From: Verrucomicrobiota bacterium
GTDB lineage: Bacteria; Verrucomicrobiota; Verrucomicrobiia; Verrucomicrobiales; Akkermansiaceae
Length of the DNA: 64,000 nt
Direction of reading: 5' to 3'
NCBI GenBank assembly: GCA_027619375.1
Contig: JAQCFL010000002.1
Span: 1,663-65,662 of the forward strand
Shown here piece after piece: positions 22,453 to 44,302 of the stretch (positions are counted from its first letter, which is position 1; each line of letters starts with the position of its first letter). Under the pieces are notes generated by a model that worked only from the letters and a program-made list of their open reading frames with translations, was not told the DNA's origin and did no database searches. A program made the position numbers and the translations under genes.

Positions 22453-22632
22453 GACTGGGGAAACGCGGTGCGGAAGGGGGAACTGCTTTCGACTGAGAGT
22501 TATGGAGAGCGGGAATATTCCCCGAAGCCCTCCGACGGGGTGGAGCATAGGACGTTTCGGCGAGCTGGCAAAGAGAAGCACGGGCAAATTCGCTCGCGGG
22601 GGACGGGCTGCTTGTGTTGGATGGGGGGAACA

Positions 22633-23895
22633 ATGAAGGAACAACTCTTGCAAAGCCCGGTCTTCCACATGGCGGCCACACAGTTCGAACGGGTCGCGGA
22701 TTTCCTGGAGCTGGGCGAGGAGATCCGGGAGCGCTGCAAGTGGCCGAAGCGCCTGATCACGGTGACCATGCCGGTGCGGATGGATGACGGGCGCACGGAG
22801 GTCTTCTTCGGGCATCGGGTGCAACACCATCTTTCCCGGGGTCCGGTCAAGGGCGGCCTGCGCTATCATCCCTCGGTGGACCTCGGCGAGGTCGCGGCGT
22901 TGGCGATGTGGATGAATTGGAAGTGTGCGCTGATGCGGTTGCCGTACGGGGGGGCGAAGGGAGGCATCGCCTGCAATCCACGCGCGATGAGCGACGGGGA
23001 AAAGGAGCGTCTGACGCGGCGTTTTGCGATGGAAATGCTCCCGTTCATCGGGGAGGAGGTCGATGTGATGGCACCGGACATGGGGACCGACGAGCAGACC
23101 ATGGCGTGGATTGTGGATGTCTATTCGACCTACGCGGGGCACCTCGTTCCGGGCATTGTGACGGGGAAACCATTGGAGCTGCAGGGCTCCGCAGGGCGCA
23201 AGGCGGCGACCGGCCACGGGGTGGCCTTTTTGGCGAGCAGGGCCTTGAACAAGCTGGGCATCCAGGCGCCGGGGGCGACTGCGGTGATTCAAGGCTTTGG
23301 CAACGTGGGCTATTACACGGCGGAAACGATGAGCGGTTACGGAATCAAGGTCAATGGGATCTCCGACGTGACCGGGGCGATCTGGAATGATGGGGGACTG
23401 GAGATCCGGGCGCTGCACAATCATGTGCTGGAGACCGGCGGGGTGGCGGGATTCGGGGAAGCGGAGGCCATTGATCCCGGGGCGCTCCTCATGCAGGAAT
23501 GCGATGTGCTGGTGCCGGCGGCGGTGGAGCGGGTCATCACCAAGGACAATGCATCCGGTTTGCGATGCCGGGTCCTGGCGGAGGCGGCGAACGGACCGAC
23601 CACCCCGGAGGCCGATGCGATCATTGAAGAGCGGGGGGACATCTACCTGATCCCGGATGTTCTTTGTAACGCGGGGGGGGTCACGGTGTCCTACTTTGAG
23701 TGGGTGCAGAATCTGCAACGTTTCCAATGGGATGAGCGGGAGGTGTTGACCAAGTTGGAAACGATGCTGGAGGGGGCTTTCGAACGTTTTCAGCAATACG
23801 TGCGTGCCGAGAAGGTGTCTCATCGGATGGCTGCGTTGTTTCTGGGGATCCAGGAGGTGGCGCGGGTGAAACAAGTGCGGGGGTTGTTTCCATGA
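22633..23895 (+). CDS. gdhA: Glutamate dehydrogenase (Glu/Leu/Phe/Val dehydrogenase family)
   Basis: ATG at 22633 (alternative 22621) inside ORF 22075..23895. Motifs are KGGLRYHP, LPYGGAKGG (catalytic Lys region) and the Rossmann loop QGFGNVG. The upstream part of the ORF is antisense to the thioredoxin-like gene. Confidence 0.9.
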   Translation: MKEQLLQSPVFHMAATQFERVADFLELGEEIRERCKWPKRLITVTMPVRMDDGRTEVFFGHRVQHHLSRGPVKGGLRYHPSVDLGEVAALAMWMNWKCALMRLPYGGAKGGIACNPRAMSDGEKERLTRRFAMEMLPFIGEEVDVMAPDMGTDEQTMAWIVDVYSTYAGHLVPGIVTGKPLELQGSAGRKAATGHGVAFLASRALNKLGIQAPGATAVIQGFGNVGYYTAETMSGYGIKVNGISDVTGAIWNDGGLEIRALHNHVLETGGVAGFGEAEAIDPGALLMQECDVLVPAAVERVITKDNASGLRCRVLAEAANGPTTPEADAIIEERGDIYLIPDVLCNAGGVTVSYFEWVQNLQRFQWDEREVLTKLETMLEGAFERFQQYVRAEKVSHRMAALFLGIQEVARVKQVRGLFP

Positions 23896-24966: not shown

Positions 24967-26742
24967 TCATGGGGCGTGGGGGCTGGAGCGGAGAGAGAGG
25001 AGGTGCTCGGCGAGGCCGAGGACCTCGGCATCGGTGAGAGTTTCGTGTCCCGGCATGTCCGTGCCGGGGAGGCCGAATTTGGCGATGCGGGCGAGGGTTT
25101 CGCGGAGCGGGGGACCGTTCGGGGCGGGGTTGCTGAAGAGGAAGGGGCCGGCGTTGAGGTTGGCAGGGGGGCGTTGGAAGTGGCGGGCGAGGGGGCCGTC
25201 GCCGCGGCCGGCTTCCCCATGGCAGGCGGCGCAGTGGAGTGCGAAGAGGGTCGCCCCTTCGGCGGGTGGAGGATCGGAGGGGGTCCAGGCGGCGATGGTT
25301 TCCAAACGGGAGGACCACTCTTCGGGAGTGGTGTTGGTGAGGAAGGCGATCAGGTCGGCGCCGCGGTCATCGTCCCAGAGCCGGAGGTAGGGGGGCATGA
25401 CGCTGCCGGGGCTGAGCAATTGGGGATGGAGGAAGTGGAGTTCCATCCATTTTGGGGAGCGGCGCAAACCGACCTGCAGCAGATCCGGTCCCTGTCTGCG
25501 GTTTCCAATCAGGACCGGGGCGTCCTGAAGGATCTTCGGGATGGATCGGCTGGGGCCCCAGAGCAACTCGTCGGCGGTGCCGGGACGCACGTAGCGGGAA
25601 TGGCAATGGATGCAGCCCTCGGAGAGATAGACGGCTTGGCCGCGGGAAACGGGGCTGGCATTGGTTGAGGGGGGCGTGGCGAGGCTCCAAGCGAGGAGCG
25701 CGGACAAGACCACGAGAACGACGGCCGGGTGTCTGCCGGGCAGTCTGAACCGGTGACAGAGCACGGCGGCCGCACCGAGCCAAACCGCGAAGACGAACCA
25801 AGGGGGGACGAGGTGGAGGTTTGCGGCCATGCCGACGCCGAGGGCGGAGCCGATCCAACCGGCGAGGCCGAAGAGTCGCGCGGCGAGGGGGAGCGCTTCG
25901 CGGCTGGTGCGGGCTCCGGAGAGGCAGCCGGGATAGACCACGAGGGCCACGGAATAGAGGGAGACTCCGAGAGGATAGAGCCAACCGGAGAGGGCGGCGA
26001 AGGCCGGTTGACCGACCCACTGCGAGGCGACCGAGAGCAGGGCGAGGGCGGGCAAGAGGACGCGGAGCAGCCAGCCCCGATCGAGAGCCAGGCCGGCGGC
26101 GAGGGCTCCGAAGAAATGGAGGGCGGCATTGCGCCAGAGCAGATCGCTGCCCCAGGTGGCCTTTTTCAGAACGGCGGTGTGTTGGATGATGTAGAAGGCG
26201 GCCGAGTCGAGCCACACGAGGGACAGGAAGAGGAACACGATGAACCAGAACTGGCGGGGGATGGTCGGGGTGGAGGCTGACTTTGGGGGACCGAAATCGT
26301 TGTTCCGCGGGACGGTGGGGACGAACACCGCAGCGAGCCCGGCGAGGAGCACCACGGCGCCGGTCTGCCACTGCCAGGTGGCTTGGAAGAAGGCGGAGAT
26401 ATTGCAGAAGGCATAGGCCAGACCGGTGCCGAGGCCTGCCACCAGTCCGGCGCGTCGGGGGGACACCGTTTGACGCAGGGTGCCGGCGAGGGTGACGAGA
26501 GCGGTGAAACCGCAGACGAGAAAGCCGATCCGCAGGAGGGTGCGAGCCCCGAAGGTTTCCACCAGGCGAGGGGTGAGGACACAGCCGAGGACGCCGCCCA
26601 GGCCCATGGCGGCCATGAGGATCTTCAGGCCGTGGCCGGCATCCTCTCCGAGGGCGCTTCCCTCCAGAAAAGCAAACTGCGCGAAGAGCCGGAAGTAGCC
26701 ATAGATCGCGGTGATGGCGAAGCCGGTGCGGAGCATGTTCAT
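24967..26742 (-). CDS. Fusion protein: MFS-like polytopic membrane domain + CcoO(FixO)-like mono-haem domain + second class-I cytochrome c domain
   Basis: The ATG at 26742 (MNMLRTGFAIT...) overlaps the upstream stop (ATGA). About 11 hydrophobic helices include the MFS-motif-A-like LTPRLVETFGARTLLRIG. Next comes CIHCHSRYVRP...GPDL...W..HF.HP...SPGSVMPPY, the CcoO signature as I recall it. The C-terminus has LFALHCAACHGEAGRGDG...GTDMP. The 157 upstream codons of ORF 24967..27213 were rejected as Arg/Pro-rich. Confidence 0.8.
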   Translation of the reverse strand: MNMLRTGFAITAIYGYFRLFAQFAFLEGSALGEDAGHGLKILMAAMGLGGVLGCVLTPRLVETFGARTLLRIGFLVCGFTALVTLAGTLRQTVSPRRAGLVAGLGTGLAYAFCNISAFFQATWQWQTGAVVLLAGLAAVFVPTVPRNNDFGPPKSASTPTIPRQFWFIVFLFLSLVWLDSAAFYIIQHTAVLKKATWGSDLLWRNAALHFFGALAAGLALDRGWLLRVLLPALALLSVASQWVGQPAFAALSGWLYPLGVSLYSVALVVYPGCLSGARTSREALPLAARLFGLAGWIGSALGVGMAANLHLVPPWFVFAVWLGAAAVLCHRFRLPGRHPAVVLVVLSALLAWSLATPPSTNASPVSRGQAVYLSEGCIHCHSRYVRPGTADELLWGPSRSIPKILQDAPVLIGNRRQGPDLLQVGLRRSPKWMELHFLHPQLLSPGSVMPPYLRLWDDDRGADLIAFLTNTTPEEWSSRLETIAAWTPSDPPPAEGATLFALHCAACHGEAGRGDGPLARHFQRPPANLNAGPFLFSNPAPNGPPLRETLARIAKFGLPGTDMPGHETLTDAEVLGLAEHLLSLRSSPHAP

Positions 26743-27161
26743 CCCTGTAAAACCCTTTCCAACAGTTGTTTGTGCAATCCGATGGCCTGGAGGCCGCCCA
26801 CCACGAGGTCGGTTGCGGCGACCGGGAGCCAGGCCGTCTCGAGGCTGCCGCGGGCCACGCTGAGGGCCACGAAAAGGGCCACGGCGCAGCGGGCCACGGC
26901 GGTGATGAGCCATTGCATGCGCCAGGCGGCGACCGCGTTGGCGTCGCGGGGGAGGCCGCCCACCAGAAAGTAGGAAAGACCGACGGAGAAGACGAAGACG
27001 CCGACCCACGAGAGGAAGATGTTGGGGCCTGCCGGTTCGCTGATTCCCATGAGGCGCAAGGTTTGCAGGGGGAGGAACAGGAGGAGGAGTCCGGTGAGGG
27101 AGTCCATCAGGCCGACGAGGCGCTGGGCCGGAAGAAGAAGTCTGGGAAACTTGTCTTGCAT
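26739..27161 (-). CDS. 140-aa four-helix membrane protein of unknown function
   Basis: Its ATG directly abuts the TAA of the upstream gene (27159-27164). There are four hydrophobic segments and no motif was recognised. Confidence 0.65.
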   Translation of the reverse strand: MQDKFPRLLLPAQRLVGLMDSLTGLLLLFLPLQTLRLMGISEPAGPNIFLSWVGVFVFSVGLSYFLVGGLPRDANAVAAWRMQWLITAVARCAVALFVALSVARGSLETAWLPVAATDLVVGGLQAIGLHKQLLERVLQG

Positions 27162-28424
27162 TTAATTGTTCGCTGCGGATTGAGGTTCGTGTGGCTTGAG
27201 GAGTCCGAGCCACCAGCGGGCGCTGACGATCAGGAGGACGAGGCCGCAGAGGAGGCGCAGGGTGTAGAGGCTCGTCTTGGTTGGGTTGGGGTGAAGGATC
27301 CAGGCGGGGTCGGCGGCTTCAAAGAGGCCGGCGCTTGCCATGAGCACGACGTAGCCGAGGGTGGCGCCGTTCCACCACCAGAAGCCCGTCGCCAAGGGCC
27401 GCGTCCCGCCGGTGAGGACCACGGCGAGGAAGAGCAGGAAGGTGCTGGTGAACCCGGCCATGGCGAAGTGGGCGTGCGCGACGAGGACGTTGGTGAATTT
27501 GGCGGCATCGAGCAGCCCCGGCAGGAAGGTGAGCCAGCCGGTGAGGATGAGCAGGGCGAGCCAGGCCAGGGAGGCGGAGAGCCAGCGGCGTTCCAGAGGG
27601 CTCCAGGAATAGCGTCGATAGAAGATCGGGAGGAGGGCGATCCAGGCGAGAAGGAGGCCGAGGCCAATCCATTGGGAGGGTTCGCGGTGACTGATCACGG
27701 TCCGCTCGAGGAAGGGAACGGCGGCGAGTTGGAGGCCGAAGACGATCCAATAGAGGGACTCTCGCCCCGCGCCTTCGGCCCTCCGCCGACCGAGGGAGCG
27801 GGGCACGAGGAGGAGCAGGAAGACGACGGACAAGCTGGAGCCGAGGAGGCTGGCCCCGGTCGGGCCGCCGCTCTCGGGGTTGACGGGAGGATAGACCTCC
27901 GGGCGGGCGGCGAGGGCGAGGAGCACCGGCACGGCGCCGAGGGCCAGGAGGCCAAGGAGATGCGCCTTGCCGCGGCGGCCGCGAAACCAGGCGGCGGCGA
28001 GGACGCCCCAAAGCAGGACCATGGCCCCGAGGAAGAAGCCGAGGCTGCGCCCGGACCAGTCCAGAAAGATCTTGCCGCTGGTCTGGCCATCCAGCCAGGC
28101 GAGGGAACCCGCCAGCAGGGCGGCGGACCAGGCCCAGATTGCCGTGAGGCCCCAGCTGGTGAGGCCGATGGCATCCACCCCGTAAAGCCGGAACAGCCAG
28201 GCGACCAAGGGGAGGCTGGTCCAGCCGAAGAGGTGCAGGTTCAGGTGCAGGGGCATCCAGCGTCCATAGGTCCAGGTGCCCAGCAGCCCGCCGCCGGTTG
28301 GGGCGACGAGGAGCAGGGCCAGGAGGAAACCCACGGCATTTGCGGCGACCAGCCAGAAGAAGGCATGCCTCAGGGCGGTCCTGATGGAAGCGTTCTCGGG
28401 CGGGAAATTGGGGGAACTCAACAT
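27162..28424 (-). CDS. cbb3 oxidase subunit I (CcoN)/NorB-like haem-copper-oxidase-superfamily membrane protein lacking recognisable CuB/FeB histidine ligands
   Basis: 420 aa, ~12 TM. GRWMPLHLNLHLFGW resembles the CcoN helix-II GRLRPLHTNAVIFAF. FTNVLVAHAHFAMAGF carries the helix-X HxH haem ligand pair. LYTLRLLCGLVLL resembles the CcoN C-terminus FYVIRLLGG. Only one His (H246) lies between residues ~160 and 316, where one His plus an HH pair is expected. These comparisons are from memory of family consensus. Confidence 0.7.
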   Translation of the reverse strand: MLSSPNFPPENASIRTALRHAFFWLVAANAVGFLLALLLVAPTGGGLLGTWTYGRWMPLHLNLHLFGWTSLPLVAWLFRLYGVDAIGLTSWGLTAIWAWSAALLAGSLAWLDGQTSGKIFLDWSGRSLGFFLGAMVLLWGVLAAAWFRGRRGKAHLLGLLALGAVPVLLALAARPEVYPPVNPESGGPTGASLLGSSLSVVFLLLLVPRSLGRRRAEGAGRESLYWIVFGLQLAAVPFLERTVISHREPSQWIGLGLLLAWIALLPIFYRRYSWSPLERRWLSASLAWLALLILTGWLTFLPGLLDAAKFTNVLVAHAHFAMAGFTSTFLLFLAVVLTGGTRPLATGFWWWNGATLGYVVLMASAGLFEAADPAWILHPNPTKTSLYTLRLLCGLVLLIVSARWWLGLLKPHEPQSAANN

Positions 28425-30206: not shown

Positions 30207-30986
30207 TCAGCTCGCCACCGAGGTGAGGTGGGGGGTCTCGCGGGGTTGCATGGCGGGGACGGCCGTCCGGAGGCGATCGAGGAAGCGCCACTGAGCGGGG
30301 GAGCCGGGTAGCTGAGAGACCGTTTTGTCTCCCAGCCGGTTGAGGCGTTCGATCAGTTGCAGGGCACTCTGCGCACCGCCGGCGAGGACCAAATTCGGTC
30401 GACCGAGGGCCAGGTCCCGGCCGCCGGTCTTGCCGCTGGTGTCCACCGGGCCGACGAAGTCCTTGAGGTCGTCCGCGATCTGAAAGGCGAGACCGACGAA
30501 GAGGCAGTAGCGCTCGAGGAGCTGGATGAGGCGCGGGCTGCCCCCAGTGATGATGACCGGGAGGAGCGCGGCGAGCCGCAGGAGCGGGACGGTTTTCATT
30601 CGGGCGATGGCCAGAACGCCATGCGGTGACCGGGAGCTACGGCTATCATGCAGATCGCGGCTCTGGCCCCCGAGGAGACTGAAGACCCCGAGGGCTTGAT
30701 CGATGTAGCTGGTCGCCTTGAGGTGATCGGGCAGGCTCGCGAAGGCGATTCCCTCCCCAATGAGGGAGTAGGCCCGGGTGATCAGGGCGAGTCCGGCGAG
30801 GACCGCGGCGCTTTCACCGTGGGTCCGGTGGACGCAGGGTGCGTGCCGCCGGGTATCGGCGTCGTCCATGCAGGGCAGATCGTCGAAGATGAGGGAAGCC
30901 GTGTGGAAATACTCCACGGCGATGGCCAGTTTGAGGGCGTGATTTCTTTCCAGTCCTGCGGAGCGCCCCGAGGCGAAGCAGGCCAT
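30207..30986 (-). CDS. trans-Prenyl diphosphate synthase-like protein (FPP/GGPP synthase family); N-terminus apparently displaced into another frame
   Basis: The first Asp-rich motif FDDLPCMDDADTRR and the second IADDLKD are present, with GKTGGRDLALGRPN downstream. Only ~30 residues precede the first motif. Plausible N-terminal sequence (DDLRALREAFRTGFDDTTEGDPVLVASLAHVLAHPG) is encoded in a different frame at ~31005-31115. Confidence 0.65.
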   Translation of the reverse strand: MACFASGRSAGLERNHALKLAIAVEYFHTASLIFDDLPCMDDADTRRHAPCVHRTHGESAAVLAGLALITRAYSLIGEGIAFASLPDHLKATSYIDQALGVFSLLGGQSRDLHDSRSSRSPHGVLAIARMKTVPLLRLAALLPVIITGGSPRLIQLLERYCLFVGLAFQIADDLKDFVGPVDTSGKTGGRDLALGRPNLVLAGGAQSALQLIERLNRLGDKTVSQLPGSPAQWRFLDRLRTAVPAMQPRETPHLTSVAS

Positions 30987-31159
30987 GGCCCTGCCGAGGT
31001 GCCCGGGTGGGCGAGCACGTGGGCCAGGGAGGCGACCAGCACCGGATCACCTTCGGTGGTGTCGTCGAAACCGGTTCGAAATGCCTCGCGGAGGGCCCGG
31101 AGATCGTCCGGAGACGCTCTGGCTTTCGGAGTTGCGGGGTTGATGGATGGGACATGCGG

Positions 31160-31723
31160 TTAGCGGATGCTCCCTTTGAGGTTGAAGCGGATCGTGACGA
31201 TGGGATTCACGGTGAGGACGAGCAATTTGCGGATCTTGCCCAGTTTGAAATCCTGGTGATCGATGCGCACGGTGCCAGACACTTGGAGGTTGCTGCCGTC
31301 GCGGACAGTGGTCACCGGGAACTGGATGATTTTTCTGACTCCGTGGATGCGGAGGGTCCCCTTGGCCCAGGTGCTGCCATCTTTGGCGGTGGCGAAGCCG
31401 CTGAGATTGAAGCTGCCGGAGGGCATGGCGGCGTGTTCCAGCCACTTGAGCATTTCGTCGTCGCGCTTCACATCGCCGGTGGGAAGGTTTTTGAAGTCCC
31501 AGCTGAGATCGACGGTCTTCGGGGTGGCGGAGTTGGCGTCGCCGGTGATTTTGATCTTATACTTGGTTAGCTTGGCGGTGAAGTCGTGGCCGGTGGCTTT
31601 GACATCGACGAGGATGGCGCTCTTGGCGGGATCGACGACGAACTCGGCTGCTTGGAGCGGCTGAGCGAGGACTCCGAGGGCGAAGGCCAGGGAGAGGAAT
31701 GGGGGAGACAATGGTGATTTCAT
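31160..31723 (-). CDS. YceI-like periplasmic polyisoprenoid/lipid-binding protein
   Basis: 187 aa with a signal peptide (…ALGVLAQPLQA). F.VDPAKS.I...V.ATGHDFTAKL...G.L.IHGV....F...V... is the YceI beta-barrel pattern. Confidence 0.8.
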   Translation of the reverse strand: MKSPLSPPFLSLAFALGVLAQPLQAAEFVVDPAKSAILVDVKATGHDFTAKLTKYKIKITGDANSATPKTVDLSWDFKNLPTGDVKRDDEMLKWLEHAAMPSGSFNLSGFATAKDGSTWAKGTLRIHGVRKIIQFPVTTVRDGSNLQVSGTVRIDHQDFKLGKIRKLLVLTVNPIVTIRFNLKGSIR

Positions 31724-31928
31724 GATGGTTTGATGGGGATGGGTTCAAAGGAGGTTCCGGTGGGAACAGGGAGGTCCCGAGGGAGGGAGAAACACTGCCG
31801 CCGTAGAACGCACGGAAGCGGAGAGGGGGCCGGGCAGGCTCGAGGAAACGGCCCATGATGCCTGGACCCACGGGTGCAGACCCGCGGAAAGGTCACCGGC
31901 CGTGCGTCCTGCACGGGGGCCGAGGGGA

Positions 31929-32327
31929 TCAGAGCCGATAGACTCCGAAGAAGCTGCGCTCGGGAGCGGGAAGCGACAAGGCGGGGTCGGGCGGGGGCCG
32001 GATGGGGAGGTGGCCGGTGGCGGGATCCTGGAGAAGGGTGATGGACGATCCGATATCGCCGCAGAGCAGGGTTCCCGGGGCGAGTTTGCCATCCGCGGGC
32101 TCCTGATCCTCGGCAAGGTCAGCGACCTCTTCGACTTCCTGGTCGCAGTGGCAGGGAACGCCGGGGGTGTTGGGTGTCGAGAGCTGGTGGCAGTTGCCCT
32201 GAAGGGGGCGGGCTGCGGCCGAGGCATGAAGGTTGACCCCGAAGAGGGACATCACCTTGCACGGGCAGCTTGGCAAGATGATGCCGAACCATGCGATGAT
32301 CAGGGCGGTATTGCGGAAGAAAGCCAC
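31929..32327 (-). CDS. Hypothetical small protein with N-terminal hydrophobic helix and Cys/His clusters
   Basis: 132 aa: MAFFRNTALIIAWFGIILPSCPC...CHCDQE... It has strongly GC3-biased codons, unlike the overlapping plus-strand ORF 31902..32372. Confidence 0.5.
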   Translation of the reverse strand: MAFFRNTALIIAWFGIILPSCPCKVMSLFGVNLHASAAARPLQGNCHQLSTPNTPGVPCHCDQEVEEVADLAEDQEPADGKLAPGTLLCGDIGSSITLLQDPATGHLPIRPPPDPALSLPAPERSFFGVYRL

Positions 32328-35603: not shown

Positions 35604-36008
35604 ATGAGCGGGGAAGAGAAGCTGGAATTGGTCAGATTGGCGGCGGTTGCCGGCAAGGAGGCCTATGCCCCCTATTCGAAGTTTGGGGTGGGTGCGGTGC
35701 TGAAGGCCCGCGACGGGCGCTTGTTTTCGGCCTGCAACGTGGAGAACGCCTCGTATGGCCTGACCATTTGTGCGGAGCGGGCGGCGGTGTTCAAGGCGGT
35801 CTCGGAGGGAGTTCAATCCTTTGCATGTCTCGCCCTGAGCGTTCCCGGCGGGGGAGCTCCGTGTGGGGCCTGTCGGCAAGTACTCCGGGAGTTCGGGGCG
35901 GATCTGCCGATTTTTGTGGGAGACGAAAATGGTGAAATGCGCCGGGAGTTGAACCTGGCGAATTTGTTGCCCGACTCCTTCGGTCCCGAGAGCTTGAATT
36001 TCCCTTAA
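35604..36008 (+). CDS. cdd: Cytidine deaminase
   Basis: 134 aa with zinc ligand motifs CAERAA and PCGACRQ, preceded by APYSKFGVGA. Confidence 0.9.
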   Translation: MSGEEKLELVRLAAVAGKEAYAPYSKFGVGAVLKARDGRLFSACNVENASYGLTICAERAAVFKAVSEGVQSFACLALSVPGGGAPCGACRQVLREFGADLPIFVGDENGEMRRELNLANLLPDSFGPESLNFP

Positions 36009-36302
36009 AAGAGGGGCTTTAGGAGCGAAAAAAGTGGCCGGTGGTCATCGGCTTTGCGGCCCTCTGCGGAGGGCCTCCGTGGCGGAAAGTGCAACTTGGT
36101 ATGCTCTGAAGGGAGGTCAGGAGCCCTCAGGAACCCGGGTGGAAAACAATAATTACGGGCAAATTCACCCAAAAACGGGGAGCTTGAAAACAGTTTTTTT
36201 AAAGGATTCGCCCGGGAAACGAGAGGGCCGCTCGAAGGACTGGCAGGAGCTGGGGGCCCGGGTCGGGAGGGGGAAGCGGAGCGGGCGGAGGAGAGGCTCG
36301 GC

Positions 36303-36683
36303 CTAGGTCTCGGGGCACATGGCCCGCACCGATTTCTGGAACTGGCGGGGGGGGAGATTGAAGTAGGATTTCACTTCGGAGGCGAAGTGGGTGTAGTGCT
36401 TGAAGCCGAGACGCTGGGCAATTACTTGCAGGGAGTAGCCTTCCGCGACCAAACGGCGAGCCAGAAGCATCCGTTGGCGCCGGAACAATTCCTTTGGCCG
36501 CAATCCGGCAACCCGTTCGACGGCGTACTCCAACTGGCGATTGGTGAGCTGCAGTTCGTCGGCCACTCCCGAAACAGAGAAGCCCTCCGCCTCTGCCAGC
36601 TCGAGTAGATCCCGACCGTCCGGACAGGCGAAGCGCTGGCCTTTGCGCTCAAGTTTGAAAGATTCTGTGTCGGGCTCAGCCAT
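36303..36683 (-). CDS. AraC-type helix-turn-helix transcriptional regulator (short, DNA-binding domain only)
   Basis: 126 aa: FSVSGVADELQLTNRQLEYAVER...LARRLVAEGYSLQVIAQRLGFKHYTHFASEVKSYFNLPPRQF, the two HTH units of the AraC family. It is divergent from the 36785 operon. Confidence 0.75.
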   Translation of the reverse strand: MAEPDTESFKLERKGQRFACPDGRDLLELAEAEGFSVSGVADELQLTNRQLEYAVERVAGLRPKELFRRQRMLLARRLVAEGYSLQVIAQRLGFKHYTHFASEVKSYFNLPPRQFQKSVRAMCPET

Positions 36684-36784
36684 GGATGAGGAAATTAAGT
36701 ATCATAGTTTTAAAAAAAACCATTTTTCAGGGGTTCTTGTCAAGTCCTTAAGAAGCCAGTAGTTTTTTCTGTTCAAAACACCAC
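36684..36784. promoter_or_regulatory. AT-rich divergent promoter region between AraC-like gene and methyltransferase operon
   Basis: This 101-bp intergenic stretch has A/T runs (TTTTAAAAAAAACCATTTTTCAGG, AGTAGTTTTTTCTGTTCAAAACACC) in an otherwise GC-rich context. No specific boxes were assigned. Confidence 0.3.
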
Positions 36785-38200
36785 ATGCAGAAGACCTCGC
36801 CACTCCTGAGCAGCATCGTTGTTTGCCGGAATCACCAGGGAGCCGAAATAACGGCCAATATTCTAAGGTTGAGGCGCTATTCGGTCGCCTTTGAAGTCTA
36901 TAATCCCTATAGCGTTCTCCAGCTGTCGGAGGTCTTGAACGATTTCCGGATCCGGGTGGGGGATCAGATTGTTTACGAGGGGAAGGCGGTCGTTTCAGGT
37001 CTGGTGAACACCGGAATCCTGCTCGTTTGCGAGGTCACCCTGGGCGATTCGTGGTTGGATGTCGGATTTTTGGCCGAGCAGGGGCAGGAGGAATCGCTGG
37101 GAGAACAGATTGGTTCGTTCCTGCATGACTGGAAGCGGGCCCATGAGGTGGATTCGGCGTTCAAGGTGGAGGTGGCGGACACCCAGAACCTCTTGTTTGG
37201 CCTCCAACGCTGGTTAGAGCAGATCGATCTCGGGATCCGCGCCACGGCGACCAAGGATCGGCACTCCCTGGAGCAGGACGTTCTTTCGCAGGTGCAGGGC
37301 AAGGTGCTGGAGGAGGTGCACGGCTTGTTTGCATCGTTTGAGAGAACGGCGCTCACCGTTCCGGAAGGGCGGGAGGCGACCCACAAGTTCTATGCGCGGC
37401 GGCAATTGCACCCGCTCTTTCTCTGTTCACCCTTCCTCTATCGCACCTTCCACAAGCCCCTGGGCTATGCGGGGGACTACGAGATGGTGAACATGATGTT
37501 GCGGGATCCCTTTGAAGGAGGATCCCTGTTTGCAAAGAACCTGAACAACGCGTTCATCCAGTCCCCGCCCGCCGAGGCGCACCGGAACCGGATCAAGTAT
37601 CTGAGGACCATGCTGCGGGATGAGACCGAACGGAATGCGCGGGAGGGGCGGCGGACGAAAATCCTGAACCTGGGCTGCGGTCCGGCCCGGGAAGTGGAGG
37701 CCTTCCTGCACGACGAGGAGTTGAGCGATCTGGCCAGTTTCACCCTCCTGGATTTCAACCGGGAAACGATCGACTATGCGCAGCGGCATTTGATGCAGGC
37801 CCGGACCACGGCGGGGCGGGTCACGCCGATTAATTTCGTGGAGCGATCCGTGCACCAGCTGCTTCGGCAGGCGGTTGGCGGTGATGAGGACCTGACTTGG
37901 AGCAGTTACGACGTGGTGTATTGCGCGGGTTTGTTCGATTACCTGTCCCAGCGGGTCTGCAAGCGTCTGATCGAGGTGTTTTTTCGGCTGTTGAAGCCCG
38001 GAGGACTGCTGGTGGTCACCAACGTGGGGACCGATAATCCCAGCCAGGGCGTGATGGAATACATCATGGAATGGAATCTGATCTACCGGGATGACGCCGG
38101 AATGAAGGACTTGGTGCCGGACACGGTTTCGCCCCGGGATTGCACCTTGAAAAGGGATCCGACCGGGGTGAACTACTTCTTGGAGATCAGGAAAGTCTGA
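36785..38200 (+). CDS. PhcB-like class I SAM-dependent methyltransferase (C-terminal MTase, ~230-aa N-terminal domain of unknown function)
   Basis: 471 aa with SAM motif I ILNLGCGPAREV and post-I LLDFN. Its size and its position ahead of sensor-kinase and response-regulator genes mirror Ralstonia phcB. That assignment is from memory and not searched. Confidence 0.75.
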   Translation: MQKTSPLLSSIVVCRNHQGAEITANILRLRRYSVAFEVYNPYSVLQLSEVLNDFRIRVGDQIVYEGKAVVSGLVNTGILLVCEVTLGDSWLDVGFLAEQGQEESLGEQIGSFLHDWKRAHEVDSAFKVEVADTQNLLFGLQRWLEQIDLGIRATATKDRHSLEQDVLSQVQGKVLEEVHGLFASFERTALTVPEGREATHKFYARRQLHPLFLCSPFLYRTFHKPLGYAGDYEMVNMMLRDPFEGGSLFAKNLNNAFIQSPPAEAHRNRIKYLRTMLRDETERNAREGRRTKILNLGCGPAREVEAFLHDEELSDLASFTLLDFNRETIDYAQRHLMQARTTAGRVTPINFVERSVHQLLRQAVGGDEDLTWSSYDVVYCAGLFDYLSQRVCKRLIEVFFRLLKPGGLLVVTNVGTDNPSQGVMEYIMEWNLIYRDDAGMKDLVPDTVSPRDCTLKRDPTGVNYFLEIRKV

Positions 38201-38204
38201 TAGA

Positions 38205-40949
38205 ATGAATCATGTTGTGAGCGGCGGGGATAGGCCCGGGCAAAAGGCGCTGCTTGGGGATCTTCGCGCCGCGTTCCACAAGGAGGAAGCGGCCGTTTTT
38301 ATGGACAACTGCCGGCGGGGAGCGGTGGTGGCCATTGCGGCAACCTTTGGAGGGGCGACCATGGACTGGGTCGTCTATCCGGGATTTGCGGAGCACTTTC
38401 TTTATGTCCGCACCGCTTTCGCCTTCTTTCTGGCGGGGATCCTGGCCCTGCTTTACTGGCAACCGGCGATGCGTTTCAGTCGCGTTCTGGGGCACATGAT
38501 CGTGCTGCTGCCGATCATCAACGTCTTGTGGATGATCGCGGCGTTGGGTGAAGACGAGTCGGCCTACTATGCCGGTCTGAACCTGGTGATGGTGGGTTCT
38601 GTGTTGCTGCTCCGCTGGAAGTTTACGGATTCGGTGATCAACTCGGTGCTTTGCTTGAGCGGCTATCTGAGCGTGGAGGCGGCGATCGGGACAAGCTTCG
38701 ACGTGGTGTTTCGGAATTCCTTCTTCATTTTGGTGACGGGGATCATTGCCTGTGTGGGGATTTATTTTTATAACAGGCTGAGGTTCAGTGAGTATTGTCT
38801 GCGGATTGAGGTGGAGGCGAACCGGGCGGAGCTGGCCCACAACCATGAGCGTTTGCGGGCCCTGGATGAGGCGAAGACCCGGTTTTTTGCGAACATCAGC
38901 CATGAGCTGCGGACGCCGTTGACGCTCATTCTGGCTCCCGTGGAGAAGCTCCGGGGGAGTGCTGCGGTGAAGGGGGACGAAACGCTCATGCAGATGGTGG
39001 ATTCCTTGGAGGACAATGGTTTACGTCTGCTTCGATTGATCAACGACTTGCTGGATTTGGTGAAGCTGGACACGGAGGAGATGAAGATGCGGCCGGAGCG
39101 TTTTCGGCCGGCAATTTTTCTCGAAGGGCTCGGTCGGAATCTGGGACCGATGGCGGATCGCAACACGGTGGCGCTGACCTGGAGTTCGAATGAAGCGGCC
39201 CAGCAGGAGGTGTATCTGGATCGGGACCGCCTGGAGAAGATCGTCCTGAACCTCGCAGTGAACGCCCTGAAATTCACTCCGCCCGGCGGGAGGGTGGAGA
39301 TGAAGGCGGATGTGGAGGAGAACACCCTGCGGTTGTCGGTCGCGGACACCGGGGAAGGGATGACCGGGGATCAGATCCGGAGTGCCTTCGAGCGATTCTG
39401 GCAGGCGGATTCCTCGGTGCGGCGCAAGCATCAGGGGGTGGGCATTGGCTTGGCCCTGGTGAAGAGCCTGACCGAGTCGATGGATGGCACGGTCGGGATC
39501 GAGAGCGAATTTGGGAAGGGGACGACCTTTAGCCTGACCATTCCGCTGGTGGCCGTGCCGGAGAAGGAGAGCGAGGCGGATGAGGGGGTGGAGGTCACGA
39601 GGCAGGATGCCTTTGACGAGCTGCACACGCGGGCGCGGCTGCAGGGGGCGGCGGTGGCCCCAACGGCGCGGGAGCCCCGCGAGTTGTTGTTGAGAAAGGC
39701 GGGGAGTCGTGCGCGGGGAGATCGGGAGCGTATTCTGATCGCGGATGACGAGGCGGGACTGCGGGCGTTCCTGCGAAGCGAACTGGAAGAGCTGGGTTGT
39801 GAGGTGGTCGAGGCGAAGGATGGGGCGGAAGCGTGGGAGTTGGCGCAGCGGATGCAGCCGAGCCTGGCGGTGTTGGACATGATGATGCCGGAAATGGATG
39901 GGATCACCCTGACCCGGAAACTTCGGGAGAGCGAAGGGACCTCCCAGCTGCCCATCGTGCTGGTGACGGCACGGGCCGATGATGCGTCGCGCATTCAAGC
40001 TCTGGAGGCTGGCGTCAGTGATTTCCTGACCAAGCCGTTCTCCACGGCGGAGCTGCGGGTGCGCATCGTCAATCTGCTGGACGGACAGCGCTACCAGCGT
40101 CAGTTGAACGTGAAGAACCGGGAGTTGGGGATCGCCTTGCAGGAGATCAAGGCGAACGAGGCGCGGCTGCTGCACGCCGAGAAGTTGTCCTCCCTGGGCC
40201 GGATGAGTGCGGGGATCGTGCATGAGGTGAACAACCCGCTCAACTACGCGAAAACGGCCCTGCATGCCTTGCGCATCTACGTGGACGATCTGCCCGAGGA
40301 GGAGCGGGAGGACTACATGGAGACGGTGGGGGATGCGGAGGAAGGAGTGGGTCGGGTCATTCGGATCATCAGCGACCTGCGTTCCTTCACGAAAGGGGAG
40401 ACCGCGCACCGCTTCGATGTGAGTCTGGGGACGGTGCTGGAGTCGGCGCGGCGTCTGGTGAGCCACGATTTGCAGGGAATTTCCTATGAAGCTGACCTTC
40501 CGGAAGGCTTGGAGGTGTCTGGAAATGACAATCAGTTGTGCCAGGTGTTCGTCAACCTGATGCAGAACAGTGCACAGGCGGTGGTGGCGGCGCGGAAGAG
40601 GGGAGAGGAGCCGACCATCGTGGTGAAGACCGGGAAGGAGCCCGATGGAAGGGTTTTTGTGTCGATCAGGGACAATGGTTGCGGAATCTCCGCGGAGGAT
40701 GTAGAGCATTTGTTCGACCCATTTTTCACGAAACGGGAAGTGGGCGAAGGAATGGGTTTGGGTTTGAGCATTTGCCACCGCATTCTAGAGTCTCACGGAG
40801 CCAGCATCGAGGTGACCAGCGAACTGGATCGATTCACGCAGTTCACCATTCACTTCCCCACCGAACCCGACGACGACGAAGAAGAAACAGCCGAGTCTCC
40901 GGAATCCTCCGGAACGGAGCACATGGAAGAAGCCAGCCGCATACAATGA
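38205..40949 (+). CDS. Membrane sensor hybrid protein: TM sensor + HisKA/HATPase + REC + second HisKA/HATPase (HK-REC-HK)
   Basis: 914 aa with ~6 N-terminal TM helices. The first H-box is FFANISHELRTPL with an ATPase (DTGEGM...GVGIGLALV...GKGTTFSL). The REC domain is ILIADDE...VLDMMMPEMDG...LTKPF. The second H-box is GIVHEVNNPLN with an ATPase (RDNGCGI...GMGLGLSI). Confidence 0.9.
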   Translation: MNHVVSGGDRPGQKALLGDLRAAFHKEEAAVFMDNCRRGAVVAIAATFGGATMDWVVYPGFAEHFLYVRTAFAFFLAGILALLYWQPAMRFSRVLGHMIVLLPIINVLWMIAALGEDESAYYAGLNLVMVGSVLLLRWKFTDSVINSVLCLSGYLSVEAAIGTSFDVVFRNSFFILVTGIIACVGIYFYNRLRFSEYCLRIEVEANRAELAHNHERLRALDEAKTRFFANISHELRTPLTLILAPVEKLRGSAAVKGDETLMQMVDSLEDNGLRLLRLINDLLDLVKLDTEEMKMRPERFRPAIFLEGLGRNLGPMADRNTVALTWSSNEAAQQEVYLDRDRLEKIVLNLAVNALKFTPPGGRVEMKADVEENTLRLSVADTGEGMTGDQIRSAFERFWQADSSVRRKHQGVGIGLALVKSLTESMDGTVGIESEFGKGTTFSLTIPLVAVPEKESEADEGVEVTRQDAFDELHTRARLQGAAVAPTAREPRELLLRKAGSRARGDRERILIADDEAGLRAFLRSELEELGCEVVEAKDGAEAWELAQRMQPSLAVLDMMMPEMDGITLTRKLRESEGTSQLPIVLVTARADDASRIQALEAGVSDFLTKPFSTAELRVRIVNLLDGQRYQRQLNVKNRELGIALQEIKANEARLLHAEKLSSLGRMSAGIVHEVNNPLNYAKTALHALRIYVDDLPEEEREDYMETVGDAEEGVGRVIRIISDLRSFTKGETAHRFDVSLGTVLESARRLVSHDLQGISYEADLPEGLEVSGNDNQLCQVFVNLMQNSAQAVVAARKRGEEPTIVVKTGKEPDGRVFVSIRDNGCGISAEDVEHLFDPFFTKREVGEGMGLGLSICHRILESHGASIEVTSELDRFTQFTIHFPTEPDDDEEETAESPESSGTEHMEEASRIQ

Positions 40950-42139
40950 GCCAACAGACCTTGGATTACCGACAGCATCTCGTCCTCTTTGTGGATGATG
41001 AGGCGAAGACCAGAAAGTATTTCGCCAAGTTATTTGGGAAGGTGTTCCGCATCGTCCTCGCCGAGGACGGGGTGGCGGGATTGGAACGATTCCGGGAGTA
41101 TCAGGACGAGATTGGAGTGGTCATCACCGACCAACGGATGCCCAACGAGTCGGGAACGCAATTTTTGGAGAAGGTGGCGCTGTTGAAGCCGAATGTGGTG
41201 CGGATTCTCTCCACGGCCTTCGCGGATATCGATGCGGCGGTGGACTCCGTGAACAAGGGGGGCATCTACCGGTATATCACCAAGCCCTGGGAGGTGCCCG
41301 AGCTGGAGGTGACCCTGCGGCGGGCGATGGAACTCTACATGGTGCGTTTGGAGCGGGAGGAATTGATCCGGCAAAAGATGATGAGTGTGGAGATCCTGGC
41401 GGCCTCGGACCGCATCATGTCTCTGGCCGCGCTTTCCGTCTTTCGGGATGGCCGACTGCGCCACGTGGGGGAGGGCCTCAAGGCGGTGGTGCGGCTGGCG
41501 GAGGATCAGCGGGATCGTGCGGCGGAGAGCGTGGCGGCGGAGGGCTTGTCATGGCGGGAGCTCTATCGGCGGCATTTGTCGTTTCTTGGATCGGTGGCGT
41601 CTTCCCTGCCGGAGAATTTGACGGAGCCTGCCGCCCTGTCCTTTGACAAGCGCTGCTCGGTGCGGGAGGTGTTGGAGGCGACGGTGGAAGTGAGCGAGGG
41701 GCGGATCGTGTGGGCGGCCCCGCGAGCCACCCCACCGGACTGGCCCGGGCCTGCCGAAGGGATGCGGATCGTGGTGGGGGGGCTCTTGAACAGCCTGGTG
41801 GAAGCCGGGGGAGGAGAGGGCCCGGTGCGTTTGGAGGAATGCCTCTCGGGGTTGGAGATCGCCTTCCCGGCGCGGCCCTTGCGGAAGCTGCTGCAGCCAG
41901 CCATGAGCACCTCGGCGGAGGAGCCTTCGCGGATCGCTCTGGAGGTCATCGGCGGCTTCCTGCGACTGGCGCACTTCGGCTGCATCTTCGATTTCCTTCC
42001 CGAACCGCAGAGTGGCGGTTGTCGGCTGCGGATCGGCTTCGACGTTTCCCGGGTGGAGCGCGCTCCGAGCGACCCCTATGAGGAACTGGCGGCGGACCTG
42101 GTCGGGAATGAGCTCTTCTGGTCGCGCTTCGTGGATTAG
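40946..42139 (+). CDS. Response regulator: REC domain + ~270-aa C-terminal domain of unknown function (PhcQ-like arrangement)
   Basis: The ATG at 40946 overlaps the kinase stop (ATGA). The REC domain is HLVLFVDDE...VVITDQRMPNESG...ITKPW. The C-terminal region has no recognised output motif. Confidence 0.85.
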   Translation: MSQQTLDYRQHLVLFVDDEAKTRKYFAKLFGKVFRIVLAEDGVAGLERFREYQDEIGVVITDQRMPNESGTQFLEKVALLKPNVVRILSTAFADIDAAVDSVNKGGIYRYITKPWEVPELEVTLRRAMELYMVRLEREELIRQKMMSVEILAASDRIMSLAALSVFRDGRLRHVGEGLKAVVRLAEDQRDRAAESVAAEGLSWRELYRRHLSFLGSVASSLPENLTEPAALSFDKRCSVREVLEATVEVSEGRIVWAAPRATPPDWPGPAEGMRIVVGGLLNSLVEAGGGEGPVRLEECLSGLEIAFPARPLRKLLQPAMSTSAEEPSRIALEVIGGFLRLAHFGCIFDFLPEPQSGGCRLRIGFDVSRVERAPSDPYEELAADLVGNELFWSRFVD

Positions 42140-42230
42140 GGGCGCCTTCTGGTCGGAGTTATGCGGAACCCAATGAAACTCAGGGTTAAATGCCTTGTGC
42201 TTAAGACATCTTAACCATTATGATCCACCC

Positions 42231-43454
42231 ATGACAACTTTCTCTAAGCGGCGGTCAAACGGAGCGGTACTACTGACGGCCATATTGGGCTTGGGCAGTG
42301 CGCCGGTCTGGGCGGTGGGCTTTTTCCTGCCGAACCAAAGCGTGGAGGCCACCGCACGAGGCAATGCCTGGGTGGCGACCGCGGACTCGGCGGCGGCGGT
42401 GCATTACAATCCGGCCGGACTCACCCAGCTGGAAGGACCGACGAGCGAGTTCGGACTCTATACCGTTTATCTGGGCTACGATCACGACTCGGATCTTGAC
42501 GGCGAGCACTACAAGACCGACCGGGGCCTGAAGGCGGTGCCGCACCTCTACTACGCGCAACCGATCAACAAGAAGATGGCCTATGGACTGGGTCTGACCG
42601 CGCCCTTTGGTTTGGGCACGGAGTGGGACAACGACACCGTCTTCCGGGATGTGGCGATCGAGGCCGATCTCAAATATGTCCGACTCTCGGCGGTGCTTTC
42701 GTATGCGTTGACCGAGACGCTCTCAATTGGTGGCGGGGTGGGGCTCGACTACACGAATGTGACGCTGAAGCGGGGCATCGATGACGCCCTGAGTCCCTTT
42801 CCGAATGATACCCTGAAGTTTGAAGGGGACGGGACGGATCTGGTTTGGACGCTCAGTCTGCTCTGGAAACCCTGCGACGCACACTCCTTCGGTCTGACCT
42901 ATCGCTCGGCGTCGGAGTTCAAGCTGAAGGGAGATGTGGAGTCCACGCCGGAAGGCTTTGGCCTGCCTGACGGCTCGGCGAACATCGACTTCAACACGCC
43001 GCAGACCGTGGCGGGCGGCTACCGGTATCGGGTCAATGATCGCTTCGACGTGGAGGCCAACGTGGAGTGGGTGGATTGGGACAGCCTGAACACGCTGACC
43101 TTGAACGGCGACGGTCTGGGCGGGATGCCGGTGCCGGTGCCCTTTGAATATGAGTCCTCCTTCATCTACGAAGTGGGGGGATCCTACCAGGTGGACGACC
43201 GCTGCCGGGTGCACTTCGGTTATGTCTACAATGAGGCTTCCGTGCCGGACCTTTTCTACAATCCCGCCGTGCCCGACTCGAACCTGCAGTCGCTCAACGT
43301 GGGGCTGAGCTACAAGTTTGACAAGGTCACCATGAGCGGGGCCTACCAGTATGCCTGGTCGGAGTATGATGTGAACGACTCGGTGCTGCCGAGCAATGGA
43401 CGGTATGACAGCGAACACCATGCCTTCCTTGTTTCAGCCCGTTGGGATTACTGA
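42231..43454 (+). CDS. FadL/OmpP1/TodX-family outer-membrane channel for hydrophobic compounds
   Basis: ATG at 42231 with a signal peptide (…LGSAPVWA). The N-terminal hatch pattern is NQSVEATARGNAWVATADSAAAVHYNPAGL. The body has alternating beta-strand composition and a C-terminal aromatic (…VSARWDY). Confidence 0.75.
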   Translation: MTTFSKRRSNGAVLLTAILGLGSAPVWAVGFFLPNQSVEATARGNAWVATADSAAAVHYNPAGLTQLEGPTSEFGLYTVYLGYDHDSDLDGEHYKTDRGLKAVPHLYYAQPINKKMAYGLGLTAPFGLGTEWDNDTVFRDVAIEADLKYVRLSAVLSYALTETLSIGGGVGLDYTNVTLKRGIDDALSPFPNDTLKFEGDGTDLVWTLSLLWKPCDAHSFGLTYRSASEFKLKGDVESTPEGFGLPDGSANIDFNTPQTVAGGYRYRVNDRFDVEANVEWVDWDSLNTLTLNGDGLGGMPVPVPFEYESSFIYEVGGSYQVDDRCRVHFGYVYNEASVPDLFYNPAVPDSNLQSLNVGLSYKFDKVTMSGAYQYAWSEYDVNDSVLPSNGRYDSEHHAFLVSARWDY

Positions 43455-43456
43455 CG

Positions 43457-44302
43457 ATGAGCGAGACTGAAGGAGGGATCCCCTATTTCGATGAGCTGTT
43501 CAAGCTGATTGGAAGCGACGAGGAGTGGTGCCGGGCCTTCGGCAAAAATGTCCATTGGGGCTATTGGGAGGATCCGGCGAAGGCGGATGGCAGTATAGAA
43601 TCCTTTGTGGAGGCGGCGGATGCGCTGACCAGGAAGACCGTGTCGGAGGCCCCCTTGCGCGATGGCATCCGCATTCTCGATGTGGGTTGCGGGTTCGGGG
43701 GGACGATTCAGATGCTCAACGAGATGGTGAAAGACAGCCATCTCATCGGAGTGAACATCGAGGAACGGCAACTGGCGCGGGCCCGCGAGAGGGTGCAGGC
43801 GAAGAACGGCAACACCATCGAGTTCATCCACATGGACGCGAACGAGCTGCATTTCGACGAGCCCTTTGACGTCATCTTCGCGGTGGAGTGCATCTTCCAC
43901 TTCAATCGGCCGAGGTTCTTCCGGCACATCAAGCGGCTGCTCAAGCCGGAGGGCCGGTTCGTGATCACCGACTTCGTGGTGAAGCGCTGGAAGATGCCCA
44001 TTTTTCGGACCCTGAACGCAATCAGCCGCAATGCGACCTTGGCGACCTATGGGGACATCGATCTTTCCTACAGCCTGACCCGGTACCGGAAAGTGGCGGA
44101 AGAGGCGGAACTCCGCTGCTCGCATGATCTCGACATTTCACGCAACACCCTGCCGACCTATGCGTTCGTGCTCCGACAGATCAAGAAGGTGGCGGACGCG
44201 AAACGGTCGACACGATTTCGCAAGGCCACGGAGGGCCTGGACAAGGCGACCCGCTGGGGGATTCTGGGCTATCACGTCATCGCCTTTTCGCATCCGGAGT
44301 GA
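43457..44302 (+). CDS. Class I SAM-dependent methyltransferase (second MTase of the cluster)
   Basis: The ATG at 43457 lies 2 nt after the FadL-like stop. Motif I is ILDVGCGFGG and the acidic loop is IGVNIEE. The motif II-III region is FDVIFAVECIFHF...LKPEGRFVITD. Confidence 0.8.
   Translation: MSETEGGIPYFDELFKLIGSDEEWCRAFGKNVHWGYWEDPAKADGSIESFVEAADALTRKTVSEAPLRDGIRILDVGCGFGGTIQMLNEMVKDSHLIGVNIEERQLARARERVQAKNGNTIEFIHMDANELHFDEPFDVIFAVECIFHFNRPRFFRHIKRLLKPEGRFVITDFVVKRWKMPIFRTLNAISRNATLATYGDIDLSYSLTRYRKVAEEAELRCSHDLDISRNTLPTYAFVLRQIKKVADAKRSTRFRKATEGLDKATRWGILGYHVIAFSHPE

Follow-up and report, generated by a model that had tools for sequence, protein, structure and literature searches.

A putative Phc-type signalling operon with a receiver-pseudokinase regulator and a linked FadL channel in a member of the Verrucomicrobiota

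The closest known relatives of the locus studied here are the phcBSRQ genes of Ralstonia and Cupriavidus. PhcB is the methyltransferase making methyl 3-hydroxymyristate or methyl 3-hydroxypalmitate (PMC8578825, PMC9197120). In the only members that have been studied, its product is an extracellular, density-dependent signal sensed by PhcS (PMC8578825, PMC11960443), and His230 of PhcS is needed for this function (PMC11960443). PhcR has been cited as a prototypical member of the class of receiver-controlled kinases that includes LvrB (PMC13269768), while PhcQ binds PhcA and maintains PhcA stability (PMC13320629). In the LvrA/LvrB system, LvrA phosphorylates its own receiver as well as LvrB, and phosphorylation of the receiver frees the catalytic domains of the receiver-controlled kinase (PMC5863495, PMC13269768). 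The Phc system has been described as genus-specific to Ralstonia (PMC8578825). We analysed a stretch of 64,000 nucleotides (the window) from contig JAQCFL010000002.1 (positions 1,663 to 65,662) of a Verrucomicrobiota bacterium of the Akkermansiaceae, and we propose, with a probability of roughly 0.6, that window positions 36785-44302 hold a Phc-type small-molecule signalling operon, which would descend from the same ancestral module as Ralstonia/Cupriavidus phcBSRQ and would have been rebuilt in this verrucomicrobium. This proposal is supported by a full-length match to PhcB, a PhcS-type sensor and kinase core, a PhcQ/PhcR-type receiver and a recurrent linkage to a FadL-family channel. An earlier note on this DNA had suggested a Phc-type cluster outside the Betaproteobacteria, and the homologies to PhcB, to PhcS and to the PhcQ/PhcR-type receiver bear it out; all six open reading frames (ORFs) and the junctions that it described were found again.

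Domains were assigned with Pfam and NCBIfam, and AlphaFold2 models were compared with the PDB. The betaproteobacterial references were obtained by a tblastn search of plasmids, which led to a cluster with the gene order methyltransferase, kinase, regulator, regulator on Paraburkholderia graminis pPHS1_P, and a protein of this cluster was then used as the query of a genome scan. The scan gave 80 loci from Burkholderiales, among them L072 of Ralstonia pickettii and L052 and L058 of Cupriavidus necator. R. solanacearum was absent from the loci returned, and the R. pickettii and C. necator orthologues were used as proxies. They can be taken as valid because the Phc proteins of Cupriavidus share 56-75% identity with their R. 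solanacearum counterparts, and one Cupriavidus strain makes a form of 3-OH PAME, the methyl ester of 3-hydroxypalmitic acid (PMC2842291). At the R. pickettii locus, ORFs of 463, 453, 377 and 333 amino acids (aa) are ordered phcB, phcS, phcR, phcQ, and these sizes agree with the published PhcB, PhcR and PhcQ of the R. solanacearum complex (PMC8578825).

The 471-aa protein encoded first in the operon is a full-length homologue of PhcB, and the likeness extends beyond the class I methyltransferase fold alone. Its residues 8-467 aligned with the PhcB orthologue of R. pickettii at 40% identity (E 1e-122), a match that includes the non-catalytic N-terminal two-thirds. The identity was also 40% to the Paraburkholderia homologue and 39-41% to the 80 Burkholderiales homologues. 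Outside the S-adenosylmethionine (SAM) site, the motifs KPLGYAGDYEMVN, AHRNR and YCAGLFDYLS are common to the window protein and PhcB. The BLASTP comparison with PhcB proposed in the earlier note therefore returned a specific, full-length similarity rather than the generic fold only. Pfam and NCBIfam placed a class I methyltransferase domain in the final 180 residues and recognised nothing in the first 270, while the AlphaFold2 model (pLDDT 86) showed a beta-barrel at about residues 10-86, a helical region at about 105-286 and a Rossmann domain at about 291-469. The best fold matches in the PDB were 3ocj, UbiG, AprA MT2, polyketide synthase C-methyltransferases and the fatty-acid-synthase pseudo-methyltransferase, that is, enzymes of small or carrier-bound acyl substrates. 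A PDB profile search with the methyltransferase family yielded a single marginal match. For the N-terminal beta-barrel, Pfam gave nothing at E up to 10, so neither PilZ nor any other assignment was made.

The closest relatives of this methyltransferase (54-99% identity) belong to Akkermansiaceae, Verrucomicrobiaceae, Roseibacillus, Luteolibacter and Oceaniferula, which places the host in Verrucomicrobiota. Many relatives are named in IMG as 'extracellular factor (EF) 3-hydroxypalmitic acid methyl ester biosynthesis protein', which is the KEGG name of PhcB, showing that the homology is already visible in databases. A HMMER search of 1.84 billion representatives collected 658 clusters at 50% identity (E <= 1e-30); among the 150 matches listed, most span nearly the whole protein, with 29-66% identity.

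The next gene (38205-40949, plus strand) encodes a kinase of 914 aa, in which Pfam recognised MASE8 (borderline), HisKA plus HATPase, REC, and again HisKA plus HATPase, in this order; we refer to the two catalytic units as core 1 and core 2. MASE8 scored 24.5 bits in the window kinase against a Pfam cutoff of 26.2, and it was above the cutoff in the kinases of relatives. When the sensors of 49 Verrucomicrobia-type proteins were compared with those of betaproteobacterial PhcS, profile-profile alignment covered 178 columns with a probability of 99.95% and E 1.2e-38. The two kinase cores have retained their His, N, G1 and G2 motifs, as the internal receiver has its Asp.

Since the order of the domains, a membrane kinase followed by a receiver and a kinase, equals that of PhcS and then PhcR, the protein could be read as a fusion of these two genes, which would make the cluster a compact phcB-(phcS+phcR)-phcQ. 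The receiver and core 2 together indeed align end to end with PhcR (25% identity, E 2e-17). However, domain-by-domain BLAST gave 159 bits (35% identity) between core 2 (about residues 641-895) and the R. pickettii PhcS kinase core, compared with 52 bits between core 2 and the PhcR kinase. Core 1 scored 46-50 bits each with the PhcS kinase, the PhcR kinase and core 2, and the membrane sensor scored 56-63 bits with the PhcS sensor. The internal receiver reached only 36 bits with the PhcR receiver, against 87-100 bits for the receiver of the separate regulator with PhcR and PhcQ. In a neighbour-joining tree of kinase cores with bootstrap, core 2 formed one clade with the PhcS cores and a short kinase of locus L101 (bootstrap 98), core 1 formed its own clade (bootstrap 100), and PhcR fell outside both. 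Moreover, short kinases with the sensor and core 2 only exist in L101 and L102. Together, the BLAST scores and the tree led us to reject the fusion that had been suggested earlier, and we regard it as highly improbable. The 914-aa protein is a PhcS homologue with a kinase-plus-receiver module between the sensor and the kinase core; because core 2 is of the PhcS type and core 1 and the internal receiver are generic, it contains no PhcR orthologue. The sensor and core 2 thus group specifically with PhcS and not with unrelated two-component families. The short kinases of 464 aa at the metagenome loci L101 (9420-10814) and L102 have the PhcS architecture, with a sensor and a core-2-type kinase, and occur at 55% methyltransferase identity. 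They show that core 1 and the receiver are gained or lost as a unit.

The third gene encodes a response regulator that the earlier note described as a receiver plus an unknown domain. Pfam likewise recognised the receiver and left about 260 residues unassigned, the C-terminal part having no match even at E up to 10. The receiver proved to be of the PhcQ/PhcR type: with its following helix it shared 38% identity with PhcQ (E 9e-36), the profile comparison giving E 3.6e-48 over 174 columns, and the receiver scored 100 bits with PhcQ and 87 bits with PhcR. The PhcQ and PhcR receivers themselves scored 112 bits with each other and are hence paralogues. The remaining part did not stay unknown, as it is a degenerate kinase core. 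A profile of residues 150-397 matched core 2 with E 5e-21 over 214 columns, the PhcS kinase cores with E 1.3e-13, and the betaproteobacterial PhcR kinase cores with E 1.2e-10, the PhcR profile being built from betaproteobacterial sequences only. The AlphaFold2 model (pLDDT 83) consisted of the receiver, a long helix and an alpha/beta domain, and its best PDB match was the receiver-controlled kinase LvrB (8vc9).

An alignment across clades displayed a graded decay of this kinase core. The regulators of more distant clades (L115, L127, L162 and L166) keep an H-box-like HH(I/L)RN, DNGPG and FDPFF and are without the N-box asparagine. In the clade of the window, the His, G1 and G2 are lost as well, and across 53 relatives there is no conservation at any of these positions. 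A C-terminal motif, GNELFWxR (residues 385-394), is invariant or nearly so. On these sequence comparisons, the regulator would be best described as a single receiver-pseudokinase of the PhcQ/PhcR family, without a DNA-binding domain. As a separate observation, the PhcQ C-termini of the P. graminis and R. pickettii loci end with ADRLAxWIERF, which loosely resembles GNELFWxR without statistical support; the two could represent a tail for partner binding that both proteins share.

Synteny was scored by tblastn and by hidden Markov models built from the window proteins, in 80 metagenome loci holding methyltransferase relatives of 48-71% identity, as well as genome and contig loci. We found that the methyltransferase, the sensor-core 1-receiver-core 2 kinase and the regulator occur in that order in nearly every locus that extends far enough, indicating that the arrangement is not due to chance. 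The synthase and the sensor are kept in one operon from 48% to 99% methyltransferase identity. Two isolates in culture, Oceaniferula spumae and Luteolibacter sp. LG18, have the trio as well. The features of the window locus are collected in Table 1.

Table 1. Features of the Phc-like locus, in window coordinates
Feature	Position	Strand	Basis or remark
AraC-type DNA-binding protein, 126 aa	36303..36683	minus, divergent from operon	HTH_18 only, Pfam E 9.5e-18
Divergent intergenic region, 101 bp, AT-rich	36684..36784		presumed promoters of both transcription units
PhcB-family SAM-dependent methyltransferase, 471 aa	36785..38200	plus	full-length PhcB homology
PhcS-type multi-pass membrane sensor, kinase residues 1-205	38205..38819	plus	profile-profile comparison; borderline Pfam MASE8
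Kinase core 1 (HisKA + HATPase, His233) and internal receiver (Asp558), residues about 206-625	38820..40079	plus	Pfam, motifs
Kinase core 2 (His673; N, G1 and G2 boxes), residues about 641-914	40125..40949	plus	PhcS-type
Response regulator, 397 aa: receiver (Asp62), long helix, degenerate kinase core	40946..42139	plus	BLAST, profiles, alignment
FadL/OMPP1/TodX-family outer-membrane channel, 407 aa with signal peptide	42231..43454	plus	Pfam Toluene_X
Second class I methyltransferase, 281 aa, RebM/MitM-like, last operon gene	43457..44302	plus	PDB sequence matches

Beyond the trio, the FadL-family protein matched Toluene_X with E 4e-59 and 200.6 bits (cutoff 29.7) over residues 35-390. Its association with the cluster, noticed earlier in this one stretch, recurs in the lineage: a FadL gene lies beside the trio in 17 of the 32 Verrucomicrobia-type loci with long flanks, compared with 1 of 81 betaproteobacterial loci. 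In the clade closest to the window, the gene comes directly downstream and on the same strand; elsewhere it lies downstream on the opposite strand or immediately upstream on either strand. As an additional observation, two loci with 56-69% methyltransferase identity carry a gene of 123 aa between the regulator and FadL (L086:14542-14913 and L098:13413-13784), which Pfam assigned to the EthD family in L086; the window has no such gene. The divergent AraC-like regulator described in the earlier note is present, and it comprises just the 126-aa DNA-binding half, without a ligand or dimerisation domain. Small AraC homologues of 121-166 aa were found in 13 of the 32 long loci, in some of them upstream of the operon and divergent, in others right behind the regulator gene.

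The second methyltransferase is a class I enzyme following FadL, as had been noted, and it proved to be confined to close relatives and to travel with FadL rather than with the trio. Its PDB sequence matches were 3bus (E 3.4e-25 over residues 22-263), MitM (E 3e-20) and D-glucose O-methyltransferase, and the RebM/MitM-like family to which it belongs is common in Planctomycetes and Cyanobacteria. In the set of loci retrieved through the PhcB-type methyltransferase, it occurs only in the window and near-identical contigs. FadL is again the gene directly before it in relatives at 70% identity. One locus (L167) has the order regulator, FadL, methyltransferase; in another (L168:775-2923, Logan contig SRR31480342_238996), the second methyltransferase is 71% identical and sits together with FadL, a UDG-family gene instead of the regulator lies directly upstream of the pair, and the convergent downstream neighbour is FMN_bind/Fer4_5, as in the window. 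The L168 contig is only 4.3 kb long, and the trio could still lie elsewhere. The second methyltransferase is thus a lineage-specific accessory tied to FadL and not to the trio. It was also compared with a cyclopropane-fatty-acid-synthase-family gene that lies about 1 kb upstream of the P. graminis plasmid cluster; the SAM motif was all they had in common, and we rejected the idea of a common accessory gene.

Compared with the betaproteobacterial Phc operons, the window locus likewise begins with a PhcB-family methyltransferase, after which come a kinase whose membrane sensor is homologous and one of whose cores is of the PhcS type, and then a regulator with a PhcQ/PhcR-type receiver and no DNA-binding domain, all co-oriented and tightly spaced. 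It differs in that the PhcS homologue carries an extra kinase core and receiver, and in that one regulator stands in place of the PhcR and PhcQ pair. The C-terminal part of this regulator is kinase-like as in PhcR, but catalytically degenerate, and no separate gene for a PhcR with a receiver and an active kinase is found at the window locus. FadL is often linked here, whereas it is essentially absent beside the betaproteobacterial operons, and the small AraC-type protein, the second methyltransferase and the host phylum, Verrucomicrobiota, are further differences. No PhcA was identified at the locus, with 64 kb of genome covered and no search aimed at LysR regulators made.

The architecture also parallels that of LvrA/LvrB, in which a sensor-DHp-CA-REC-DHp-CA protein is followed by a REC-DHp-CA protein; at the window locus the second protein is REC-DHp-CA-like. 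The NCBIfam LvrA model aligned with the window kinase over positions 182-817 of 819 at 259 bits, far below its family cutoff of 1200 bits, indicating an architectural parallel and not family membership. LvrA is cytoplasmic with a PAS sensor, while the window kinase has a PhcS-type membrane sensor. LvrB is an active kinase (His161) that signals to LvrC, while the window regulator is without the His and the ATP-binding boxes. A third parallel is offered by Sinorhizobium, where FadL serves to take up long-chain acyl-homoserine lactone signals (PMC9938287). Both cases would pair a FadL-family channel with a hydrophobic, fatty-acyl-bearing quorum-sensing signal, which is the putative cargo here. 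In Sinorhizobium, however, the signal belongs to the acyl-homoserine lactones and fadL lies outside the synthase/receptor operon, whereas the channel of the window is encoded inside or beside the operon.

Based on homology and gene linkage, from which every step below is drawn, we propose the following mechanism. The PhcB homologue would use SAM to methylate a fatty-acid-like carboxylate; by analogy, a 3-hydroxy fatty acid would be converted to a hydrophobic methyl ester, which the second methyltransferase may modify further. FadL would move the hydrophobic compound across the outer membrane, in either direction, and the PhcS-type membrane sensor would detect it. Core 1 would then autophosphorylate on His233 and pass the phosphate to Asp558 of the internal receiver, and the phosphorylated receiver would switch on core 2 (His673), as in LvrA and LvrB. 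Core 2 would in turn phosphorylate the regulator at Asp62. The pseudokinase domain of the regulator probably binds an output protein, in the way that Ralstonia PhcQ binds and stabilises PhcA, and the best candidate for this partner would be the linked small AraC-type protein.

The main alternative is that the operon serves envelope or lipid homeostasis instead of signalling between cells. In that case the fatty acid modified by the methyltransferase would be either endogenous or imported, exogenous hydrophobic substrates would enter by way of FadL, and the membrane or lipid status reported by the sensor would serve to adjust envelope genes. This would fit the classical role of FadL, the import of long-chain fatty acids and hydrophobic compounds, and a sensor that lies entirely in the membrane, without a periplasmic domain. 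The UDG-family gene, in place of the regulator, upstream of the FadL and second methyltransferase pair on the short L168 contig, and the cyclopropane-synthase-like gene near the Paraburkholderia plasmid cluster, point in the same direction. Yet PhcB products, where they have been studied, are extracellular, density-dependent signals sensed by PhcS (PMC8578825, PMC11960443), a strict synthase-sensor-regulator operon is the typical pattern of an autoinducer circuit, and lipid-metabolism genes are not consistently linked. We therefore consider homeostasis unlikely, with perhaps a chance of one in four or five. Far less probable still is a role of the 471-aa protein as a protein methyltransferase that tunes the kinase or the regulator, in a CheR-type adaptation, rather than as a small-molecule synthase. 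A weak Pfam match to CheR (E 2e-4, below the curated cutoff), a profile match of about 70 residues (E 3e-5) to a protein lysine methyltransferase and a large non-catalytic N-terminal region that could bind a protein speak for such a role. They are opposed by the accepted function of PhcB as methyl 3-hydroxymyristate/3-hydroxypalmitate synthase (PMC8578825, PMC9197120), by the best folds, which belong to methyltransferases of small-molecule and acyl-carrier substrates (3ocj, UbiG, AprA MT2 and the polyketide synthase C-methyltransferases), and by the lack of a linked demethylase or deamidase partner in related loci.

The proposal of a Phc-type signalling operon has to be weighed against several observations of its own. 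The 40% identity to PhcB does not fix the substrate, and some other methylated lipid may be the product. Between the C-terminal domain of the regulator and that of PhcQ there is no significant similarity (P = 0.013, probability 3.4%), and comparisons of the PhcQ C-terminal domain with the C-terminal part of the regulator, the PhcS and PhcR kinase cores and core 2 all gave P values between 0.013 and 0.4. FadL is absent from about half of the long loci, and in Luteolibacter LG18 no FadL was found within 9 kb, suggesting that the channel is not essential to the module. The small AraC-type protein was detected in only 13 of the 32 long loci and, at the thresholds used, went undetected in the clades with 48-52% methyltransferase identity. 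Given L168, the pair of FadL and the second methyltransferase may also have an unrelated job.

Verrucomicrobia are abundant in sea water, lakes and soil. In agreement with the earlier view that a phc-type system in this fused and extended form is not known to have been characterised outside the Betaproteobacteria, our literature search found no paper that links phcB or 3-OH PAME with Verrucomicrobia in substance. The present comparisons suggest that signalling by fatty-acid esters may be far more widespread than Ralstonia, and a supposedly genus-specific system, with homologues in Cupriavidus, would be widened to an under-studied phylum. Taking all parts jointly, Phc-type methyl-ester signalling could be ancient and widespread as an autoinducer system and would give Verrucomicrobiota their first quorum-sensing system, in a form of its own with a dedicated FadL channel, a two-stage, receiver-gated PhcS kinase and a receiver-pseudokinase that controls a minimal AraC-type protein by direct binding; we hold this fuller picture tentatively, at somewhat below even odds. 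The hypothesis is directly testable, as two cultured strains carry the operon. PhcS-type kinases can carry or be without an inserted kinase-receiver stage. In addition, the series of regulators from near-intact kinase-like to fully degenerate domains suggests that PhcQ itself may be a decayed PhcR-type receiver-kinase, an origin that would fit the recent finding that PhcQ acts by binding PhcA.

At the junctions of the operon, the methyltransferase stop TGA (38198-38200) is followed by a gap of 4 nucleotides and the kinase ATG at 38205, the stop of the kinase gene overlaps the start of the regulator gene in an ATGA at 40946-40949, and the FadL stop (43452-43454) is separated by 2 nucleotides from the ATG of the second methyltransferase at 43457. 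The longest FadL ORF begins further upstream, at TTG 42195. The start is most likely ATG 42231, which gives the signal peptide MTTFSKRR...VWA and is supported by this peptide and by the same gene call in a 99%-identical contig. The genes past 44302 are convergent and encode an FMN_bind/Fer4_5 protein and a FAD oxidoreductase; the operon thus spans 36785-44302 and ends with the second methyltransferase. In the divergent intergenic region (36684-36784), one promoter-like site was found on the minus strand, and promoter and terminator scans were otherwise uninformative. Alignment of this region with relatives revealed limited conservation, in part of the stretch before the ATG, and no clear operator. 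An Rfam scan of the window returned no RNA family, and no paralogues of the cluster proteins were found elsewhere within the 64-kb window.

The G+C content of the cluster (window 36001-44000) is 58-61%, while the flanking 8 kb have 64-67%. Relatives at 69% identity share the insertion site of the window, which lies after a cytidine deaminase gene, indicating that any horizontal acquisition was not recent. Among the betaproteobacterial loci, the P. graminis cluster (L001; NZ_CP024936.1, 432595-436970) lies on a 494-kb conjugative plasmid (MOBP, MPF_F) and has only a 134-aa receiver protein at the PhcR position. A PhcB homologue 90% identical to Paraburkholderia proteins was seen on contig JBARCX010000022.1 (L014) of a metagenome-assembled genome labelled Rhodanobacter sp., and this contig is probably mis-binned.

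Elsewhere in the window, the plus strand carries a pair of glutamate/leucine-type dehydrogenase genes (ELFV_dehydrog), at 22075-23895 and at about 30812-32239, with some 7 kb between them. The former ORF has about 220 additional N-terminal residues, and the latter was placed by correspondence with a 99%-identical contig (L082). Between them, on the minus strand (24967-27213), the recognised domains of a 748-aa ORF, FixO and cytochrome c (cbb3 subunit III-like), are confined to the final 230 residues, and the long N-terminal part is unassigned. The 26-28 kb region of the window has an unusually strong AT skew of 0.26.

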